Positions 7,460 through 62,366 of a stretch of DNA of 64,000 nucleotides are shown here, one piece after another. The stretch covers positions 7,452 through 71,451 of the forward strand of contig QHWB01000051.1 of assembly GCA_003222395.1 (NCBI GenBank). The letters are read 5' to 3'. Below the pieces are notes generated by a model that did no database searches, had not been told where the DNA came from, and saw only the letters and a program-made list of their open reading frames with translations. The position numbers were made by a program, and so were the translations under genes. The DNA is from Acidobacteriota bacterium (lineage in GTDB: Bacteria; Acidobacteriota; Vicinamibacteria; Vicinamibacterales; CAVVIG01). How positions within the stretch are numbered: position 1 is the stretch's first letter; each line of letters begins with the position of its first letter.

Positions 7460-8620
7460 ATGCCGAGCGTCGTCATTTCCGCGCGCGGTGAAGAGCGTCT
7501 GCACGGCGGCCATCCGTGGATCTATCGCGCCGATGTCGCCGACGTGCAGGCGTCGGGCGGCGACATCGTGCAGGTGCGCAGCCGGCGCGGCGGCCGTCCG
7601 CTCGGCAGCGCGCTGTTCAGCGATCGATCCCAGATTTCGCTGCGGATGCTGGCGTACGGCGATCACGTTGCCGACGAAACGCTCGTGCGCCGGCGCCTCG
7701 ACGCGGCCATCCGGTTTCGCGCGTCGCTCGAAATCGACGCGACCGCCTATCGCCTCGTCCATGGCGAGGCGGATCTCCTTCCGTCGCTCATCGTCGATCG
7801 ATACGGTGAGCATCTGGTCGTGCAGGCGCTGTCCCAGGGGATGGATCGACTGCTGCCGGTCGTCGTCTCGACGCTCGAGGAGCTCCTTCATCCGAAAGGC
7901 ATCCTCGCGCGAAACGATCCGCGCGCGCGTCAGCTCGAAGGGCTCGAACAGCGGGTCGAGGTGCTCGCCGGCGACGTGCCGGAGACGGTCATGGTGACGG
8001 AAGTCGGAATCGACTACGACGTCGATCTTCGCCGGGGACAGAAGACGGGGCTGTTTCTCGATCAACGCGAGAATCGCGCGGCCGCGGCGGCTTACGCGCG
8101 GGGCCGGCTGCTCGACTGTTTCAGCTACAACGGCGGATTCGCGCTCGTGCTGGGACGGCGCAGCCAGGAGACGATTGCGATCGACGTGTCGGAAGACGCG
8201 GTGGCGCGCGTCCGGCGGAATGCCGCGCGGAACGGCGTCGCCGTCGACGCGCGCGTCGGCAACGTGTTCGACGAGCTCCGCGGCTTCGAACGGACCGCCG
8301 AGCGCTTCGATACGATCGTGCTCGATCCGCCGGCGTTCGCGAAGAACAAGGCGGCGGTCTCCGGCGCGCTGGCCGGCTACAAGGAGATCAACCTGCGCGC
8401 GCTGAAGCTGCTCAATCCCGGCGGCACGCTCGTCACGTGCAGCTGTTCGTACAACGTCAACGAAGCGATGTTCGCCGAAATCGTCTACGATGCGGCCGTC
8501 GACGCGCAGACGCACGTCACTGTCGTCGAGAAGCGGATGCAGGGGCGCGACCATCCGGTGATGCTCGGCGTTCCCGAAACGTACTATTTGAAATGCTTCA
8601 TCCTACGAAAGCTCGCGTGA
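7460..8620 (+). CDS. rlmI: 23S rRNA m5C methyltransferase RlmI-like (PUA + class I SAM MTase)
   Basis: GHPWIYRADV PUA-like N-term, LDCFSYNGGFAL, IVLDPPAFAK SAM-MTase motifs. ATG 7460 preferred over adjacent GTG 7457. Confidence 0.85.
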   Translation: MPSVVISARGEERLHGGHPWIYRADVADVQASGGDIVQVRSRRGGRPLGSALFSDRSQISLRMLAYGDHVADETLVRRRLDAAIRFRASLEIDATAYRLVHGEADLLPSLIVDRYGEHLVVQALSQGMDRLLPVVVSTLEELLHPKGILARNDPRARQLEGLEQRVEVLAGDVPETVMVTEVGIDYDVDLRRGQKTGLFLDQRENRAAAAAYARGRLLDCFSYNGGFALVLGRRSQETIAIDVSEDAVARVRRNAARNGVAVDARVGNVFDELRGFERTAERFDTIVLDPPAFAKNKAAVSGALAGYKEINLRALKLLNPGGTLVTCSCSYNVNEAMFAEIVYDAAVDAQTHVTVVEKRMQGRDHPVMLGVPETYYLKCFILRKLA

Positions 8621-9795
8621 AGCGCGAGCTGGCCCGGCTGGCGCGCTCGGTCGGCGAGTTCGACGCGAGCCGCTATTTCCGCGGCCCTCGCGATCTCGCG
8701 TTCTACAACGTCGGCACGCCGGCCATGCGCGCGCTGGCGCGATCGATCTACGCCGCCAACGCCGACACCTGGTCGATCGACGACGCGATGGCGCTCGCGA
8801 ACGCGCTGGTGGCCGATCGATATCTCGAGGCGAAGTCGATCGGTATCGAGATCGTCGCACGCTACAAGCGCGACTTCTCGCCGCGCCATCTGCCGACGTG
8901 GAAGCGATGGCTGGCGGAAAACCGTTCGGCGAACTGGGCGACCACCGACGGCATCTGCGGGTGCCTGATCGGTCCGCTGCTCGTCAAACATCCGGAGCTG
9001 GCCGAAGGGATGCGGGCGTGGTCGCGTCATCGGAACATGTGGGTCCGCCGGGCGTCGATCGTGGGTCTGATCCCGCTGGCGCGCCGCGGCGTCGCGCTCG
9101 ACATCGCGTACGACGTCGCGAAGACGCTCCATCGCGACAAGGAAGATCTCGTTCAGAAGGCCGTTGGCTGGACGCTGCGCGAGGCCGGCAAAGCCGATCC
9201 GGCGCGACTCGAGCGCTACCTGCGCGCGAACGGGCCGTCCATTCCGCGGACGACCGTCCGCTATGCGATCGAGCGCTTCGATGAGAAGAAGCGCCGCGAG
9301 CTGCTGTCCGTGACGCTCGGTTCCGGATACGCGCGAGCGCAACCGCGCGACCCGTCGACCCTTCGCGAGCCTCAGGGTCGAGGCGGGGCGCCGCGGCAAA
9401 TGAACGAAGACAGGTTCAAACACAAACCGCGGATCGAGAAGCTCGGTGTCAAGGCGGGCACACGCGTGGCGCTGATCGCCGTCGGCGACAAGGACTTCTC
9501 GCAGGAGGTCCGGCGCGTCGCCGAGGATGTGACGATCGGCCGCGCGCCGGCCGGGTGCGACATCATCTTCTTCGGCGCGGTCAGCGCGAAGGAGCTCGTC
9601 CGGGTCGCGACGCTGAAGACGTGGATGAAGCCCAACGGCGCTCTGTGGGTCATCCGTCCGAAGGGACGGCCGGAGATCTCCGAGCGCGCCGTGATGGACG
9701 CGGGCAAAGCGGCGGGTCTCGTCGACGTGAAGGTCGTCAGCTTTTCCGAGACGCACACCGCGGAGAAGTTCGTGATTCCGCTGGCGGCGAGGTGA
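8593..9795 (+). CDS. AlkD-like DNA alkylation repair (HEAT-like) protein continuous in frame with a DUF3052-like C-terminal domain
   Basis: N-part: ..ANWATTDGICGCLIGPL..WVRRASIV..VQKAVGWTLRE.. (AlkD/AlkC-like). C-part from MNEDRFKHKPRIEKLGVKAGTRV (ATG 9400) resembles DUF3052. No stop in frame between them. ATG 8593 overlaps the rlmI end. Confidence 0.7.
   Translation: MLHPTKARVKRELARLARSVGEFDASRYFRGPRDLAFYNVGTPAMRALARSIYAANADTWSIDDAMALANALVADRYLEAKSIGIEIVARYKRDFSPRHLPTWKRWLAENRSANWATTDGICGCLIGPLLVKHPELAEGMRAWSRHRNMWVRRASIVGLIPLARRGVALDIAYDVAKTLHRDKEDLVQKAVGWTLREAGKADPARLERYLRANGPSIPRTTVRYAIERFDEKKRRELLSVTLGSGYARAQPRDPSTLREPQGRGGAPRQMNEDRFKHKPRIEKLGVKAGTRVALIAVGDKDFSQEVRRVAEDVTIGRAPAGCDIIFFGAVSAKELVRVATLKTWMKPNGALWVIRPKGRPEISERAVMDAGKAAGLVDVKVVSFSETHTAEKFVIPLAAR
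9309..9399 (-). repeat. diverged inverted copy (C) of the composite element at 37463-37604, forming the open linker of the AlkD/DUF3052 ORF
   Basis: Reverse complement of 9309-9340 is GCGCTCGCGCGTATCCGGAACCGAGCGTCACGG. Copy A has CCGCTCGCGCGTATCCAGAACAGAACGTCGCAGC (about 27 of 34 identical). GGCGGGGCGCC at 9382-9392 resembles the module-1 hairpin. Confidence 0.55.
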
Positions 9796-35380: not shown

Positions 35381-36301
35381 TCACTTTTCACCGCGACGCG
35401 CGTTGAGATCGCGCAGCTTGCGCTCCGCGCGCGCTTCGATCAGCGCTGCATCGTAGACGCGCGCCTCACGCGCGCGATCGATCAGGCGTTTCCACGCGCT
35501 GGCGCTCGCGTTCAGATCGTGAAAGTACACGTCGTGCACGTCGGCAATGCGCTGCAGGAAGATCGGATTCGCCGGATAGCGCGCGTCGAGCGACTCGAGC
35601 AGTGTCAATGCCGCGCGTGGACGTCCCTCGTACCACAGATAAATCTGATGCAGCTCGAAGTCGGCCTGGCCGCGCAGCAGCACGCCGCGATCGCGAGCGA
35701 GCAGCATCTCGCGGAGCCCGCTGACGCGATCGCCGCCCGGCAGCAGCAGCAGCCATCGCAGGAATTTCGCGTACAGCGGCGCGACGTCGGCGTAGTAGCG
35801 ATACAGCCCGATGCCGAAGTGGGCATCGTCGAGCGACGGATCGAGCTGCAGGGAGCGCTCGAGCGCGGCTTTGATCTTGTTTCCGTCGCGCGCGGCGGCG
35901 AGGCGTTCGTTGCGGGCGACGCGGAGCTGCACGAGCGGAACGTAGGAGCCTGCGAGGTAGAACCAGGCTTCGGCACGGCCCGGTTCGCGCCGGGTCCATT
36001 GGAGATTGGCGGCGACAGCGGCGCCGGCGAGGTCGATGAGCCGCCGATCCAGTGCGCGGTTGCCGGAATCGATGAGGATTTGCCACCACACGGCCTCGGC
36101 GGCGAGCGCCTGGCACGCGCCCTGCGGCGCCGGGGGGCACGTCTTGGCCAGCGCCGCGTCGGTGCGATCGAATTGCGCGTTGAGAATCGAGTCGTAAACA
36201 GCAGCGAGCCGCGGTGCTTCGGTCAGGCCGGTCCTCTGCGGCGTCGCGAGCACGAGGGCGCCCCCAGCCAGCAGCCACCAGCAACGAGCAACCAGCGTCA
36301 C
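35381..36301 (-). CDS. secreted helical-repeat (TPR-like) hypothetical protein
   Basis: GTG 36301 overlaps ddl stop (GTGA). N-terminal LVARCWWLLAGGALVLA signal-like segment, helical repeats. Confidence 0.6.
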   Translation of the reverse strand: MTLVARCWWLLAGGALVLATPQRTGLTEAPRLAAVYDSILNAQFDRTDAALAKTCPPAPQGACQALAAEAVWWQILIDSGNRALDRRLIDLAGAAVAANLQWTRREPGRAEAWFYLAGSYVPLVQLRVARNERLAAARDGNKIKAALERSLQLDPSLDDAHFGIGLYRYYADVAPLYAKFLRWLLLLPGGDRVSGLREMLLARDRGVLLRGQADFELHQIYLWYEGRPRAALTLLESLDARYPANPIFLQRIADVHDVYFHDLNASASAWKRLIDRAREARVYDAALIEARAERKLRDLNARRGEK

Positions 36302-37428
36302 ATGCTCGTTCGTAATTGCTGCTTTTCCGCATGCCGCTCGATCGCGAGCGCGATGAGACGATCGAGCAGCTGCGCGTATGTGACGCCGCTCGCCTCCCAC
36401 ATCTTCGAGTACATGCTGATCGTGGTGAAGCCCGGAATCGTGTTGAGCTCGTTGAGGTACAAGGTGCCGCTGTCGCCGGCGAGCAGAAAGTCGACGCGAG
36501 CCATGCCTGCGCAGTCGATCGCCTTGAACGCGGCCACGGCGAGGTTGCGGACCTCGTCGGTCATGTTCCTCGTCAGCTCGGCCGGGATGACCGTTTTCGA
36601 TGCTTCGTCGAGGTACTTCGCCTCGTAGTCGTAGAACTCGCGAGACGGGAGGATTTCGCCGGGAACCGACGCCTCGGGTTCGTCGTTGCCGAGGACGGCG
36701 CATTCGATTTCGCGCGCGCTGGGCACGGCGGCTTCGACGACGATCTTTCGATCGAACTGCGCGGCGAACTCGATCGCGTCGCGCAGCTCGCTCGCGTGCT
36801 TCGCCTTCGAGATGCCGACGCTCGACCCGAGGTTCGCCGGCTTGACGAACACCGGGAACCCAAGCTGCTTCACGATGCGGTTCATGACCGCGCGGGCATC
36901 GCGCTGCCAGTCGCGCTTCAGCACGACGTCGTAGTCGCAAATCGGCAGCTTCCTGGCGGCGAACACGAGCTTCATCGCCGCCTTGTCCATGCCGACCGAC
37001 GAAGCGAGCACGCCGGCGCCGACATACGGGACGTTGGCGAGCTCCAGCAGCCCCTGCACCGTGCCGTCCTCTCCGTACGGACCGTGCAGCACCGGGAAAA
37101 CGACGTCGAGCGCCAGGCCGGCGACCGCCGCCCCGTCGTCTCGCCGATCGATCGTCATCAGCGTGTCGCCGCCAGGATGCGCGACGAGGTGTGCCTCGCG
37201 CGCCTGATCCGTCAGCTCGGATTTGTTGGCGCGAATCACGTCACCGGCCGAGACGAGCGCCGGCGGCCGGCGCGCGAGCGCCCATCGTCCGTCCTTCTCG
37301 ATGCGGATCGGAATGGCCTCGTACCGCTCGGGATCGAGATTCTGAAAGACCGCCGCGGCCGACGCGAGCGAGATCTCGTGCTCGCCCGACCGCCCGCCGT
37401 AAATGACGCCGACGCGAAGTTTTCTCAT
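36298..37428 (-). CDS. ddl: D-alanine--D-alanine ligase
   Basis: VIYGGRSGEHEISL, HGPYGEDGTVQGLLE, ATP-grasp LNELNTIPGFT. Confidence 0.95.
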   Translation of the reverse strand: MRKLRVGVIYGGRSGEHEISLASAAAVFQNLDPERYEAIPIRIEKDGRWALARRPPALVSAGDVIRANKSELTDQAREAHLVAHPGGDTLMTIDRRDDGAAVAGLALDVVFPVLHGPYGEDGTVQGLLELANVPYVGAGVLASSVGMDKAAMKLVFAARKLPICDYDVVLKRDWQRDARAVMNRIVKQLGFPVFVKPANLGSSVGISKAKHASELRDAIEFAAQFDRKIVVEAAVPSAREIECAVLGNDEPEASVPGEILPSREFYDYEAKYLDEASKTVIPAELTRNMTDEVRNLAVAAFKAIDCAGMARVDFLLAGDSGTLYLNELNTIPGFTTISMYSKMWEASGVTYAQLLDRLIALAIERHAEKQQLRTSM

Positions 37429-37462
37429 CTTTTAACCGCGTGGGGCCCCGCATCTCGCATCG

Positions 37463-37604
37463 CGGCGGGGACCCACCCCCGCCGCGGTTGCTCGGCGCAT
37501 GCGCGCCTCGCAACAGCTCAAGGCTGTCACGCGCAGACGCGCTCGCGGCGTAAACCGCTCGCGCGTATCCAGAACAGAACGTCGCAGCACCATTTTGTGT
37601 TGCG
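37463..37604 (+). repeat. composite structured repeat element, copy A (three hairpin modules plus a 49-nt copy-specific insert)
   Basis: Module 1 CGGCGGGG-ACCCAC-CCCCGCCG (37463-37484). Module 2 ACGCGC-TC-GCGG-CGTAAA-CCGC-TC-GCGCGT (37537-37566). Module 3 CGCAGCAC-CATTTT-GTGTTGCG (37583-37604). Matches 61513-61600. Confidence 0.8.
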
Positions 37605-37638: not shown

Positions 37639-39084
<1,446 letters not shown>

Positions 39085-58460: not shown

Positions 58461-60923
58461 ATGAGCGATCACATCGAGAACCTCAAGCCGGAGGACATCT
58501 CGATCGGCGATCGGCCGCTCTCGATTCCGTCGGAGCTGCCGATTCTGCCGCTTCGGGACACGGTCCTCTTTCCGAATTCGTTCATGCCGCTCGCGGTCGC
58601 GCGCGAGAGCTCCGTGCGCCTCATCGACGACGCGATCGCGAACGGCAAGCTCATCGCCGTCTTCACGCAGCGCGATGCCGCCGTCGAGGAGCCGGGGCAG
58701 GACGATCTGTACCCGGTCGGCACCGCGACGCACATCCACAAGATGTTCAAGCTGCCCGACGGCAGCCTTCGTCTCATCGTGCAGGGGCTCGCGCGGCTGC
58801 GCCTCGGGTCGATCGTCGCGACGCAGCCGTACCTGCGCGCGCAGGTGAGCGCGGCCGTCGAGGACACCAACGACGCTGATCGCCTCGAGATCGACGCGCT
58901 CGCGCGCAACATCAAGACGAACTTCCAGCAGGTGGTGTCGCTGTCGCCGCTGCTCTCCGACGACCTGCAGACGCTCGCCGTGAACATCACCGAGCCCGGA
59001 CGCCTCGCGGACTTCATCGCCTCGTCGCTGTCGACCATCAGCACGCAGACCAAGCAGGAGGTGCTGGAGACGCTCGACATTCGCGAACGCCTCGACAACC
59101 TGAATCGGATCCTCATCAAGGAGCTCGAGGTGCTCGAGCTCGGCTCGAAGATTCAGTCGCAGGTGCAGTCGGAGGTCGGCAAGAACCAGCGCGAGTACTT
59201 CCTGCGCGAGCAGATGAAGGCGATTCAGAAGGAGCTCGGCGAAGGCGACGACCAGACCAAGGAAGTCGAGGAGCTCCAGGAGAAGATCGAGGCCGCCGGC
59301 ATGCCGGAGTTGGTCAAGAAGGAGGCGCTGCGCGAGCTCGATCGCTTGTCGAAGATGCCGGTGGCGGCGGCGGAGTACACCGTCTCGCGCACGTATCTCG
59401 ACTGGATCGTTGCGCTGCCGTGGAACAAACGCACCGACGAAGTGATCGATCTGCCGAAGACCAAGCAGGTGCTCGACGCCGATCATTCGGGCCTCGAGCG
59501 CGCGAAGGATCGCATCCTCGAATATCTTGCGGTTCGCAAGCTCAATCCCGAGGTGAAGGGTCCGATCCTCTGCTTCGTGGGTCCTCCCGGCGTCGGCAAG
59601 ACGTCGCTGGCGCGATCGATCGCCGAATCGCTCGGCCGCAAGTTCGTCCGCGTGTCGCTCGGCGGCATGCGTGACGAGGCCGAAATCCGCGGCCACCGCC
59701 GGACTTATATCGGCGCCCTGCCCGGTCAGGTGATTCAGGGTCTGCGCCGCGCCGAGTCGAAGAATCCGGTATTCATCCTCGACGAGATCGACAAGCTCGG
59801 ATCGGACTTCCGCGGCGATCCGGCGTCGGCGCTGCTCGAGGTGCTCGACCCGGAGCAGAACAACACGTTTCGGGATCACTATCTCGACGTGCCGTTCGAT
59901 CTGTCCGAGGTGCTGTTCATCACGACGGCCAACGTGCTCGATCCCGTTCCGCCCGCGTTGAAGGACCGAATGGAAGTGCTCGAGATCGCCGGCTACACCG
60001 AGGAAGAGAAGCTGAAGATCGCCACCGATCACCTCGTCGACAAGCAGGTGAAGAACCACGGGCTGACCGTGGACTACATCCGCTTCACGCCCGACGCGCT
60101 GCGCCAGGTGATTCGCGGGTACACGCGCGAAGCGGGCGTCCGCAACCTCGAGCGCGAGATCGGATCGCTCTGCCGCAAAGTGGCGCGCCGCCGCGCCGAA
60201 GGCAACGAAACGCCGATGGAGGTCACGCCCGACGTCGTCGTCGAGATGCTCGGCGCACCGAAGTTCCTCGACGAGGAGATGGAAGAGCGCACGAAGGATC
60301 CCGGCGTCGCGATCGGCCTCGCGTGGACGCCGGCGGGCGGCGAAGTGCTGTTCATCGAAGCGTCGCGGATGACCGGAGGCGGAACGCTGACGCTCACCGG
60401 GCAGCTCGGCGACGTGATGAAGGAATCGGCGCGCGCGGCGCTCTCGTGGCTTCGCACGCACGCGAGGGAGTACAACATCGACCCCGACTTCTTCAAGAAC
60501 GCCGAGATGCACGTACACGTGCCGTCCGGCGCCATTCCGAAGGACGGTCCGTCGGCCGGCGTCACCATGGCGACGGCGATGGCGTCGGAGCTGACCGGTC
60601 GTCCGGTGCGCGGCGACGTCGCGATGACCGGCGAGCTCACCCTCTCGGGGCGCGTGCTGCCGATTGGAGGCGTGAAGGAAAAGGTGCTCGCGGCGCGCCG
60701 CGTCGGTATTCGCGAAGTGATTCTGCCGAAGCAGAACGCAAAGAACGTCAACGAGGATCTGACGCCGGAGCTGCGGCAGGATCTGACGATCCATCTCGTG
60801 TCGTCGATTGACGAAGTGCTCGCCCTCGCGCTGCAGCCCGTGTCGTCCGACATGCGTCCGCCGAAGAAGCTTCCGAAGGAGCCGGACGCCAAGCCGAGCG
60901 CGCCCGTCGCGGCCCGTCCGTAA
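58461..60923 (+). CDS. lon: ATP-dependent endopeptidase La
   Basis: LON N-domain, [15 protein letters not shown], protease domain [14 protein letters not shown] with catalytic Ser; 820 aa. Confidence 0.97.
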
Positions 60924-60934
60924 GGACGGACCTC

Positions 60935-62041
60935 GTGTCCGCCCGCATCGTCTACTCGGCCCGGTATCGCGTCGATATCGGGCCGCACGTTTTTCCAACC
61001 AGGAAATACGATCTCGTCTACGACGCGCTTGGCCGCCCGCCCGCAGTCGATCCGCCGCCGGCCACGTGGGAAGATCTCTCCCTCGTCCACACGACGGAGT
61101 ATCTCGAGAAGCTCCGAACCGGCACGATGTCGGAGGAGGACGTCGCACAGCTCGAGCTGCCGTGGTCGCCGGAAATGGTCGAAGGATTCCGGGTGATGGT
61201 GGGCGGAACGATCCAGGCCGCTCTGTTCGCCTGCGGTCTGTCCGCCGACAGCACGACGCAGAGACCGCAGAGCCAAGAATCTTCAGCGGCGCCGGAAGGC
61301 CAAGAATTCTCTGCTGACTCTGCGATCTCCGCGTTCAACGTTGGCTGTCACATCGGTGGAGGGCTCCATCACGCATTTCCGAATCACGGCGAAGGCTTCT
61401 GCCCGTTCAACGACGTCGCCGTCGCGGTGCGCGTGCTGCAGCATCGCGGCGTCGGGCGCATCGCGATCGTTGACCTCGACGTACACCATGGGAACGGTAC
61501 GGCATTTATTTTCGGCGGGGCCCCACCCCCGCCGCAGACGCGCTCGGGCCGTAGCCCTCGCGCGTATCAAGAACAGAACGTCACACACGCAAATGTGTTC
61601 ACCTTCTCGATGCACCAGCAGCACAACTACCCGATGTGGAAGCCCCGCGGGTCCCTCGACGTCGGCCTGCCCGACGGTGCGCGCGACGCGACGTTTCTCG
61701 GCGAGCTCGAGCGCGCGCTGCCGAAGGTCGCCGCGCATCGGCCGCAATGTGTGTTCTATCTCGCCGGAGCGGATCCGTACGAGGACGATCAGCTCGGTGG
61801 ACTGCGGTTGACGAAGCAAGGTCTGAGGCGCCGCGATCGCCTCGTCATCGACACCTTCCGGATCGCGGGCGTTCCGATCGTCGTCACGCTCGCTGGCGGC
61901 TACGCGCGGCGGGTCGAAGACACCGTCGCAATCCACGTCGCCACGATCGAAGAAGCTATGGGCGCGGGGGCTGCGTCGGGACCGCCAACAGCACCGCCTC
62001 GAGCCGATCGGGGCCGACAGGCTTCGTCAGGTGAAGGTTGA
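60935..62041 (+). CDS. histone-deacetylase-family (class II/APAH-like) deacetylase carrying two in-frame repeat insertions
   Basis: GGGLHHAFPNHGEGFCPFNDVAV, VDLDVHHGNGT, VFTFSMH, LAGADPYEDDQLG motifs. GTG start 12 nt after the lon stop. Confidence 0.85.
   Translation: MSARIVYSARYRVDIGPHVFPTRKYDLVYDALGRPPAVDPPPATWEDLSLVHTTEYLEKLRTGTMSEEDVAQLELPWSPEMVEGFRVMVGGTIQAALFACGLSADSTTQRPQSQESSAAPEGQEFSADSAISAFNVGCHIGGGLHHAFPNHGEGFCPFNDVAVAVRVLQHRGVGRIAIVDLDVHHGNGTAFIFGGAPPPPQTRSGRSPRAYQEQNVTHANVFTFSMHQQHNYPMWKPRGSLDVGLPDGARDATFLGELERALPKVAAHRPQCVFYLAGADPYEDDQLGGLRLTKQGLRRRDRLVIDTFRIAGVPIVVTLAGGYARRVEDTVAIHVATIEEAMGAGAASGPPTAPPRADRGRQASSGEG
61240..61341. repeat. hairpin repeat inserted in frame in the deacetylase gene
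   Basis: Inverted arms CGCAGAGACCGCAGAG / CTCTGCTGACTCTGCG, internal direct GCCAAGAAT x2 and CTTC-AGCGGCGCCG-GAAG hairpin. Encodes LSADSTTQRPQSQESSAAPEGQEFSADSAISAFNV. Confidence 0.7.
61513..61600 (+). repeat. composite structured repeat element, copy B, in frame in the deacetylase gene
   Basis: CGGCGGGG-CCCCAC-CCCCGCCG, then CAGACGCGCTCGGGCCGTAGCCCTCGCGCGTATCAAGAACAGAACGTCACACACGCAAATGTGTT. Collinear with 37463-37484 plus 37534-37600. Confidence 0.8.
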
Positions 62042-62366
62042 ATCCCGCCTCGAGCGCCTTACGGCGATCGTCCGGGTGTCCCCATCCGGTCACCGCAATC
62101 AGATGCACCGATGATAGAGACGCGTCGGCGCGGAATCGCCGGGCGACCTCGTAGCCGTCGATGCCGCCGGGCAGTCCGATGTCGCACAGGAGGACGTCCG
62201 GCCGCTCTTCCCGTGCAGCCGCGATCGCATCCCGCCCGAGATGCACGACGCGCGCGCGGTGCCCGAGGAGATCGAGGAGCGCGCGGAGCGTCCGGGCGAC
62301 GTCGACGTCGTCCTCGACGACGAGCACGCTCAGCGAGCGGGCGGCGCTTCGTTTTTTCGCGCGCAC
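61956..62366 (-). CDS. single-domain response regulator (CheY-like receiver)
   Basis: VLVVEDD, phospho-acceptor LLCDIGLPG, LTKPV. GTG start. 3' end overlaps the deacetylase tail by 86 nt. Confidence 0.8.
   Translation of the reverse strand: MRAKKRSAARSLSVLVVEDDVDVARTLRALLDLLGHRARVVHLGRDAIAAAREERPDVLLCDIGLPGGIDGYEVARRFRADASLSSVHLIAVTGWGHPDDRRKALEAGFNLHLTKPVGPDRLEAVLLAVPTQPPRP

Follow-up and report, generated by a model that had tools for sequence, protein, structure and literature searches.

Probable in-frame copy of a Vicinamibacterial hairpin repeat in the gene for an HDAC11-like deacetylase

The DNA considered here is a stretch of 64,000 nucleotides of a metagenomic contig from a vicinamibacterial member of the Acidobacteriota (QHWB01000051.1), referred to below as the window, and our subject is an insert in its gene for an HDAC11-like zinc deacetylase. 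The analysis makes it very probable that positions 61514-61583 represent a copy of a non-autonomous repeat that is rich in hairpins, belongs to the type of the repetitive extragenic palindromes (REPs) and MITEs (transposable elements of miniature size with inverted repeats), has spread through the class Vicinamibacteria and is called here the Vicinamibacterial palindromic element. To judge from the sequences, the host protein appears to be made and the loop encoded by the insert to be translated. The gene and the parts of its insert are the following.

60935-62041, + strand: gene for an HDAC11-like (class IV type) zinc deacetylase, 368 aa, host of the insert (PF00850, E 9e-52)
61502-61513, + strand: left flank GCATTTATTTTC (AFIF), left part of the patch that differs between near-identical filled and empty alleles
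61514-61583, + strand: probable in-frame copy of the Vicinamibacterial hairpin repeat, short form, codons 194-217 (nhmmer E 1.4e-18)
61513-61534, + strand: hairpin 1 (CGGCGGGG-CCCCAC-CCCCGCCG), translated GGAPPPP, from the DNA fold
61538-61565, + strand: hairpin 2 (ACGCGC-TC-GGGC-CGTA-GCCC-TC-GCGCGT), translated TRSGRSPRA, from the DNA fold
61566-61582, + strand: non-palindromic conserved tail ATCAAGAACAGAACGTC (YQEQNV), an exact match to the core motif, kept in about 75 copies of other genomes
61583-61594, + strand: substituted host codons, THAN against SDPx in empty alleles, right part of the flank patch

Codons 194-220 (61514-61594) read GGAPPPPQTRSGRSPRAYQEQNVTHAN and are flanked by DLDVHHGNGTAFIF and VFTFSMH. 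The original prediction had described these 27 codons as separating two motifs that normally stand about five residues apart, and both points are borne out, since orthologues without the insert (empty alleles) read F-ESDPR-VFTF and the Leptospira structure 9gz5, which is also empty, reads IFQNDPDVFTF. Compared with the closest empty allele, 66 nt (22 codons) have been gained on balance; the remaining five codons are substitutions and not additions.

The insert is about 90% identical to the spliced copy in the spacer between ddl and tgt in the window, and 88% identical to the family consensus. Positions 61513-61535 agree with 37463-37485 at 22 of 23 bases and 61533-61599 agree with 37532-37601 at 80% identity over 70 nt (E 1e-10), the spacer copy having 49 additional nt between its two matching blocks. 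This confirms the proposed collinearity with the spacer. The further proposal that all three hairpin modules are shared does not hold for the family as a whole: the 'third hairpin' (61583-61598) is common pairwise to the spacer copy alone and overlaps the host Val-Phe codons, and the family-wide parts of the insert are hairpins 1 and 2 plus the ATCnAGAACAGAACGTC tail only. Of two core motifs the window has 2 and 3 occurrences, where shuffles lead one to expect 0.02 and 0.00. The deacetylase and spacer copies fold into an identical two-hairpin layout, with z scores of -3.4 and -4.7 (insert region 61505-61605: -4.7). The other two copies in the window are these.

37461-37601, + strand: intergenic long-form copy between the divergent genes ddl (36298-37428, - strand) and tgt (37654-38805, + strand), with hairpin 1 at 37461-37486, the extra module at 37487-37531, hairpin 2 at 37537-37566 and the tail to 37583
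9310-9391, - strand: partial diverged copy, in frame ('-0') in an open reading frame (ORF) of 661 aa (7810-9792, + strand), found by blastn and nhmmer

The family was inventoried by scanning a 19-base core pattern against one genome per GTDB species (W denotes the window allele of the deacetylase, and L and P numbers denote other loci and alleles). The scan gave 67 loci, 6 of which were chance matches without the rest of the element; the 61 genuine loci came nearly all from metagenome-assembled genomes (MAGs) labelled Vicinamibacteria, Vicinamibacterales or Acidobacteria, with 34 in MNEX01, 9 in JBGPHH01, 7 in MELA01 and 3 in CAVQZZ01. A hidden Markov model (HMM) of the family, built from 41 units of other genomes and run with nhmmer, gave 96 matches in about 500 kb of MAG loci and matched the window at exactly three places, namely 61514-61583 (E 1.4e-18), 37530-37584 (E 2e-11) and 9310-9350 on the - strand (E 7e-7).

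The canonical unit has a length of about 70-85 nt and consists, in order, of an AT-rich left arm (10-14 nt), hairpin 1 (GCGYGGGG-CCCCAC-CCCCRCGC), hairpin 2 (ACGCGC-TC-NNNN-loop-NNNN-TC-GCGCGT) and the non-palindromic tail ATCYAGAACAGAACGTC; a longer subfamily has an extra module. In the inner 4-bp stem of hairpin 2 all 144 cells of 36 units are paired, by five different complementary sequence pairs, and the outer stem of hairpin 1 occurs in at least 8 complementary variants among family copies. The covarying stems indicate that the secondary structure, and not the sequence alone, is maintained. Compensating changes in the inner stem of hairpin 2 are found between the spacer copy (GCGG/CCGC) and the deacetylase copy (GGGC/GCCC), and also within coding sequence, between the window allele (GGGC/GCCC) and the alleles P0003 and L071 (GGAC/GTCC). 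The left arm (consensus ACATTCTTTACT; L015, L046, L054, L022 and L018) agrees with the reverse-complement tail ACGTTCTGTTCT at 9 of 12 positions when compared by eye, without a statistical test, and this resemblance could represent a degenerate terminal inverted repeat, in which case the unit would be a true MITE. A half-hairpin, GGGGCC(C/A)(G/A)AC, stands before many left arms, which suggests nested or dimeric copies.

Copies of the family are mostly intergenic, and some are strung together head to tail in arrays, 2-5 units in each, that repeat about every 70 nt (L062:7220-7560, L064:5675-5900, L026:2680-2940, L030, L054 and L034). Within arrays an intact hairpin 1 and the AT-rich arm are seen in the first unit only, and the arrays yield small spurious 'hypothetical protein' ORFs in databases. 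An interpretation of the arrays as CRISPR was rejected, because the whole unit repeats including the would-be spacers, and a terminator role of hairpin 1 was rejected because on one strand the T-run comes before the hairpin, and on the opposite strand an A-run comes after it. Searches of Rfam 15 returned no gathering-level match in the window and nothing at E 1 or better in an array locus, and a permissive search of the spacer copy returned one match at chance level (E 0.98). The 1.5-kb contig of L034 (DASXTV01), binned as Gemmatimonadales, carries an element array and a flanking gene start MPENKLVGHNYTTPD as in L064 (MNEX01), and is probably mis-binned.

The state of the insertion site was followed in 120 database proteins and 80 metagenome loci with the lon-deacetylase neighbourhood; the downstream response regulator is also present on three contigs from the European Nucleotide Archive (ENA). 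The empty state, TAFIF-ESDPR-VFTFSMH, is found in 62 of the 80 loci and 93 of the 120 proteins, and the site is filled at exactly the same position in the other 18 loci and in 19 proteins. A phmmer alignment of the window protein to 9gz5 breaks exactly at both of its insert regions. The occupant is not always the same. A long form with 24 more residues than the short form is present in P0006, P0009, L070 and L079, and in its middle module it shares 88-96% identity with copies from other genomes, which lie in MetRS, in MeaB and between genes; a second type, family B, reads NPRGAPPPRGEDRRLERGL...; and there are shortened or scrambled versions, e.g. NHGQEQGVGDPR, NPGGGNNAG and NPRGEECRGEDADGA. 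The filled allele was recovered independently in assemblies of the Joint Genome Institute (JGI) and ENA (L068, L069 and P0001, the last with 55 member sequences).

A neighbour-joining gene tree was built from 295 well-aligned columns of 191 distinct sequences, leaving the insert columns aside. Filled and empty alleles are intermingled in it at every depth, and parsimony requires at least 15 changes with an empty root. The clade of the window contains filled (W, L068, L069 and P0001) as well as empty alleles (P0002, P0004 and P0007), and similar sister contrasts are provided by P0003 (filled) beside P0008 (empty) and by P0009 (filled) beside P0011 (empty). The original prediction would have failed if the segment were ancestral protein sequence, and this is contradicted by the empty state of 62 of 80 orthologues and of 9gz5, by the empty root and by the near-identical empty allele P0002. 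Between P0002 and the filled L069, 21 of 1050 aligned bases differ, with 12 of the differences in about 30 nt hugging the insert, 7 in the first variable region and 2 elsewhere; the left flank is GCATTTATTTTC in L069 and GCGCTTGTGTTC in P0002, and the right flank is GTCACAGACGCAAATGTG and GAATCCGACCCAACCGTT, respectively. The near-identity of the two alleles elsewhere means that the event separating them is recent. The filled alleles W and P0003 have the flank codons TTTATYTTC and GACGCMAAYGTG in common. The filled or empty state may move as a short homologous-recombination tract, or the element may bring its own arms and integrate by target similarity, or both.

The genes carrying the insert do not look like relics. 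The ratio of nonsynonymous to synonymous substitution rates (dN/dS) is 0.17-0.30, alike for filled against filled and filled against empty alleles, and no column that is invariant in the alignment of 79 family sequences is altered in the window protein, which retains the HH pair, the zinc motif D-x-H and the tyrosine of GGY. The frame is intact in each of the 18 filled metagenome alleles and 19 filled proteins, with about a dozen insert lengths and no stops, and since frame matters only if a gene is read, the retained frame suggests that it is read. The filled genes are under purifying selection and are not decaying pseudogenes, which answers another doubt raised with the original prediction. 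The insert itself is 88% identical between the window allele and L071 despite a synonymous divergence (dS) of about 1.05 for the gene, i.e. synonymous sites near saturation. Such conservation fits a recently entered insert, its conversion by the genomic family or a constraint on its hairpins; it does not fit an old, neutrally drifting loop. The predicted tryptic junction peptide of the filled deacetylase is AYQEQNVTHANVFTFSMHQQHNYPMWKPR.

The nearest solved structure is that of Leptospira interrogans HDAC11 (9gz5; phmmer E 1e-59, Foldseek TM score 0.85 on the target). An AlphaFold2 model of the window protein from the 79-sequence alignment has a mean predicted local distance difference test score (pLDDT) of 77 and a predicted template modelling score (pTM) of 0.81. 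Segments with pLDDT below 50 include residues 108-131, in the first insert region, and 201-217, in the repeat insert, so that both inserts, for which surface loops had been proposed as a check, are predicted with low confidence; the repeat insert comes after helix 188-194 and before strand 221-228. Connections leading from a helix to a strand lie, in a parallel alpha/beta fold, at the sheet edge opposite the active site, which is formed at the C-terminal strand ends, where D180, D182 and H184 lie. From the fold topology rather than from coordinates, the insert loop would thus be on the side of the sheet away from the zinc site.

The deacetylase is not the only host. Intragenic copies are reported here only if confirmed by Pfam, as a coding heuristic based on GC content at third codon positions (GC3) got the strand wrong at the deacetylase copy, and insert-free orthologues were examined for the deacetylase only among the host genes. 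With this restriction, in-frame copies in MAG loci are present in at least nine other conserved proteins of related genomes, which supports the proposed likeness to the Rickettsia palindromic elements (RPEs). Among the hosts are a ROK-family kinase (domain 5-347, insert approximately 199-250), DnaE (three sites), MetRS, ThrC, BirA, UvrC, MeaB and an ABC-F ATPase, and their Pfam domains flank the insert or are interrupted by it. The DNA polymerase III alpha gene (L022:2352-6077, - strand) has three separate in-frame sites with four units, one site being double; one site is within the PHP domain region and one right after an HHH motif. The MetRS copy lies in the linker preceding the tRNA-binding domain, and the RNase H-like domain of UvrC is split in two by the element, as is MeaB. 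In all these hosts the element is antisense to the canonical orientation and in one shared frame, giving the recurring peptide (L/Q)RRSVLDTRE..GASASG.GVGP..A(N/S)KK. The deacetylase copy has the opposite orientation and a frame giving GAPPPPQTRS.RSPRAYQEQNV, and the copy at 9310-9391 is in a third frame. A profile of the element peptide (LRRSVLDTRE..GASASG.GVGP) run against a set of 5.8 billion proteins found 17 tiny hypothetical ORFs and no host proteins, a peptide of about 29 aa being unable to reach significance in a set of that size.

That the insert is a multiple of three and free of stops had been put forward in its favour. Both statements are true, but the lack of stops is weak evidence on its own: in a set of 41 canonical units, the number of open copies is 31, 16, 31, 38, 29 and 15 for the six frames. 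The frame used in the deacetylase is open in 31 of these 41, and copies do not, as had been feared, routinely carry stops in all frames. The absence of stops is unremarkable in a GC-rich element and speaks neither for nor against an RPE-like interpretation. It had also been claimed that three repeat copies of the window are translated. The deacetylase insert and the partial copy at 9310-9391, which is in frame, agree with this, while the first insert of the deacetylase could not be recognised as a copy (see below). The copy at 9310-9391 lies directly after a DNA_alkylation (AlkD-like) domain (PF08713, residues 272-490) and before a C-terminal part of 130 residues, so the AlkD half of the proposed AlkD/DUF3052 linker is sound, but the DUF3052 match is weak (E 0.003) and below the curated cut-off. 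The ORF at 7810-9792 may represent two genes fused through an open element copy. Its first 270 residues are without a Pfam match, and the true start may be further downstream.

Outside genes, the element is associated with translation starts. In 20 of 51 full copies the complement of an ATG stands 12-24 nt to the left of hairpin 1 (mode 14-15 nt), and this ATG opens a coding-like ORF, at least 80 codons long, that leads away from the element; examples are L062:7216-7560, L026:2682-2950, L033, L019, L020, L055, L067 and, in the window, 37428-37486, where the ddl start MRKLRVGV adjoins the spacer copy. The N-termini that follow from these starts look genuine; signal peptides are among them, as are MTDVVVIGGGPAG, MLRIALTGGIATGKS and the TatD-type MIDSHCHL, which two genomes have at the same place. 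The junction consensus on the mRNA strand is GGGGCCCCRCG-(A)G-ATAAG-AnA-ATG-A, and the usual landing context is an A-rich leader followed by ATG, of the form ATAAGAAAATGAA (shared leader ...CGAG-ATAAG-AnA-ATG). Translation-start regions are either a target of the element or supplied in part by its arm. The antisense of the deacetylase codons TTC ATC TTC GAA TCC is GGATTCGAAGATGAA and that of the empty site is GGATTCGAAGATGAAC; that of the filled allele, GGGGCCCCGCGCGGATTGAAAATGAAC, is almost the same as the canonical junction GGGGCCCCACGCGATAAGAAAATGAAA in L033. The F-I-F-E-S codons may hence mimic, in antisense, the usual landing context of the element, a hypothesis that would account for the repeated use of this codon as well as for the copy's atypical orientation.

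From these observations the following course of events can be proposed. A copy would have entered the deacetylase at the FIF|ESDPR loop, whose antisense resembles the usual landing context, and only insertions in frame, free of stops and in a tolerant surface loop would have survived. The peptide would be translated as a disordered loop rich in proline and arginine with little effect on catalysis, the presence or absence of the insert together with a few flanking codons would move by short-patch homologous recombination, repeated insertion or both, and the insert would decay through in-frame deletions. Candidate engines of the spread are a hairpin-recognising single-strand transposase (HUH/Y1, like the REP-associated tyrosine transposases, RAYTs) and recombinational copying. 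We put forward only tentatively that the element is currently active and site-selective in free-living soil Acidobacteria, homing to or carrying a leader-plus-ATG context and hitting coding sequence at antisense mimics. If this is true, the element hits one and the same deacetylase codon again and again, whole protein loops distinguish near-identical strains that occur together, and we are dealing with an ongoing, observable process of RPE type and possibly with a mobile translation-start module.

Several points weigh against this course of events. The flanks differ on both sides of the insert, which is not what a simple cut-and-paste insertion would leave, and the deacetylase junctions show no target-site duplication; nor was a transposase or a clean empty/filled junction found in the loci examined. 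The same junction residues recur in distant filled alleles (left, N-P/H-G-G; right, xDAN), and this can also be read as a single origin. The landing-site mimicry amounts to about 11 of 16 matching bases and was noticed post hoc. The neighbour-joining tree, with its 295 columns, is not robust at depth, and the inventory is biased to copies matching the 19-base core pattern and comes from fragmentary MAGs. Finally, translation of the loop and activity of the enzyme are suggested indirectly.

The shared junctions lead to the rival explanation of a single ancient insertion without any site preference, in which the patchwork of alleles would result from vertical descent, allele replacement by homologous recombination between filled and empty strains, in-situ gene conversion by other genomic copies (changing the subfamily) and deletions. 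We consider it a possible though rather unlikely history. It would account for the junctions FIF-N-P/H-G-G and (A)DAN in distant filled alleles and for the flank codons that W and P0003 share, and the short patch with substituted flank codons that separates L069 from P0002 resembles a recombination tract. However, the junction residues may be encoded by the arm or stem of the element and thus recur in independent events; the stems covary with their partners. Different subfamily architectures are found at the site, L071 has the native triplet series GAT CCG CGC intact to the right of its insert and family B is readable as lying to the right of that triplet, the root is empty with at least 15 state changes, and multiple hits per gene are shown by DnaE and by the neighbouring loop (insert 1). 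It is improbable, in our view, that the loop has been domesticated, i.e. that its peptide or its mRNA hairpins were co-opted as a regulatory or interaction loop, or for translation or stability, and are maintained by selection. The nucleotide identity of the insert between W and L071, above that of the synonymous sites of the host, and the compensatory change from GGGC/GCCC to GGAC/GTCC of hairpin 2 in coding sequence could be taken in this sense, but recent entry or gene conversion by the genomic family predicts the same conservation, near-identical strains do without the insert, many lineages hold truncated or scrambled remnants, the predicted structure is disordered, and the same element occurs in unrelated proteins.

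Two further explanations carry very little weight. The strong structure of the segment might suggest that it is left untranslated, as an intron-like element or by a translational hop, or else the gene might be a pseudogene; this is highly improbable, as neither the window nor the element matches any Rfam family, intron or other, the filled alleles of about a dozen lengths are all in frame and stop-free, and dN/dS is about 0.2 with intact catalytic motifs. It is still harder to believe that the resemblance to the repeat reflects chance similarity of GC-rich DNA, an ancestral loop or a chimeric assembly. GC-rich hairpins are common and the contigs are metagenomic, but the E value of the HMM match and the near-zero number of motif matches in shuffles speak against chance, the recovery of the filled allele (L068, L069 and P0001) in both JGI and ENA assemblies against an artefact, and the empty state of the majority and of the root against an ancestral loop.

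RPEs, the textbook example of translated intragenic palindromes, are found between genes and also in frame in conserved functional genes (Ogata et al. 2000, 2002, as summarised in PMC10969869 and PMC3733652), and a 2024 review still singles them out while allowing that similar processes may occur in other prokaryotes (PMC10969869). Our search of the literature, within the coverage of one library, found no paper linking RPEs with Acidobacteria and none describing this element. The novelty outside Rickettsia was nevertheless overstated in the original prediction. Di Nocera et al. (2013) reported GTAG- and CGTC-tagged REPs inside genes of several phyla, notably uvrA/B, dnaE/dnaE2, recBCD and tRNA-synthetase genes, with intragenic REPs most numerous in the soil verrucomicrobium Opitutus terrae and in R. 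conorii, and with a recB site that is occupied, at about the same position, by different REPs in two Xanthomonas species (PMC3733652). The Vicinamibacterial element behaves in a like manner, and in-frame intragenic palindromes as such are already known in several phyla.

The likeness to RPEs comprises intergenic and in-frame copies, a recurrent peptide, loop sites tolerated by the fold and the possibility of several hits per gene. There are many dispersed copies per genome (34 loci in MNEX01), and in-frame copies in a conserved gene have insert-free orthologues (62 of 80 deacetylase loci). In contrast to the RPEs of reduced intracellular Rickettsia genomes, the element belongs to another phylum and to a free-living soil bacterium with 65% GC, and its unit of about 70-85 nt has two separate hairpins and a non-palindromic tail, forms tandem arrays and is strongly associated with start codons. 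Given the phylum and the 65% GC, homology to RPE-1 to RPE-10 of Rickettsia is unlikely; the likeness is one of behaviour, and the element is not filed as a member of the RPEs.

Similarities with the GTAG and CGTC REPs are the short, GC-rich, covarying stem-loops in UvrC, DnaE and MetRS, and the recurrent occupation of one codon, comparable to the recB case. Unlike in the GTAG REPs, however, GTAG is in our element part only of the variable loop of hairpin 2 (CGTA, CGTG, CGTT or CGTAAA), and there is no conserved terminal tag. CGTC-tagged REPs are defined by CGTC abutting a stem of 8-9 bp with A/T at stem positions 1-2, a loop of 4-5 nt and a short tail (PMC3733652). The Vicinamibacterial unit nearly always ends in ...GAACGTC (the final TC was not required by the search pattern), but this CGTC is not adjacent to a stem; hairpin 2 starts with GACG, and the stems of the unit are GC-only, with an internal bulge and without A/T at the first positions. 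Classical REPs lie mostly downstream of genes, whereas Vicinamibacterial copies lie mostly just upstream of start codons, and no REPtron-like inverted pairs around a small ORF were found in the MAG loci, where the members of inverted pairs are separated by about 2 kb or more and resemble pairs of gene starts. With MITEs that make in-frame fusions, such as ERIC, BOX, QMITE1, the Anabaena MITEs and Correia (PMC10969869) the element has in common that it is a small, non-autonomous repeat, occasionally intragenic and probably translated, and polymorphic between strains; it differs in that internal hairpins and not terminal repeats are conserved, the 9/12 match of arm and tail being suggestive at most.

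In-frame 'selfish' palindromes have mostly been treated as a Rickettsia oddity with scattered cases elsewhere, and here they are met at a sizeable scale in an abundant and little-studied class of soil bacteria. One deacetylase codon is seen empty, freshly filled, filled by other subfamilies and decayed, a natural series for the conversion of mobile DNA to protein and for the birth and trimming of loops. On the practical side, gene calls in Acidobacteriota MAGs will be inflated or split by copies of the element, which will also give rise to spurious small ORFs and interfere with alignments.

The deacetylase contains a further variable region.

61244-61339, + strand: first variable or insert region, residues approximately 104-135, a self inverted repeat, palindromic

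This region is hypervariable in length and type in nearly all orthologues. It has at least two palindromic forms: one, ACGCAGAG.../...CTCTGCG, gives TQRPQS..SADSAxSAF, and another, with TTCGAAGT repeats, gives SSKSEVRS..TSNFRV. P0003 is without the first insert, and the window differs there from P0002 and L069 by an indel of a 9-nt repeat unit. The first insert had been counted among the translated repeat copies, but no convincing other copy was found in the sequences searched, and with only one weak match outside the deacetylase loci its status as a copy of a dispersed repeat was not adopted.

The deacetylase gene is preceded by lon (58461-60923, + strand) and followed by a convergent response-regulator gene (61956-62366, - strand), and the order lon, deacetylase, response regulator is seen again at orthologue loci. 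The 3' end of the deacetylase ORF overlaps the convergent response-regulator ORF by 86 nt (61956-62041). A C-terminal tail of 25-30 residues (…GAGAASGPPTAPPRADRGRQASSGEG) is confined to the closest relatives, and more distant orthologues stop soon after ...ATIEEA.

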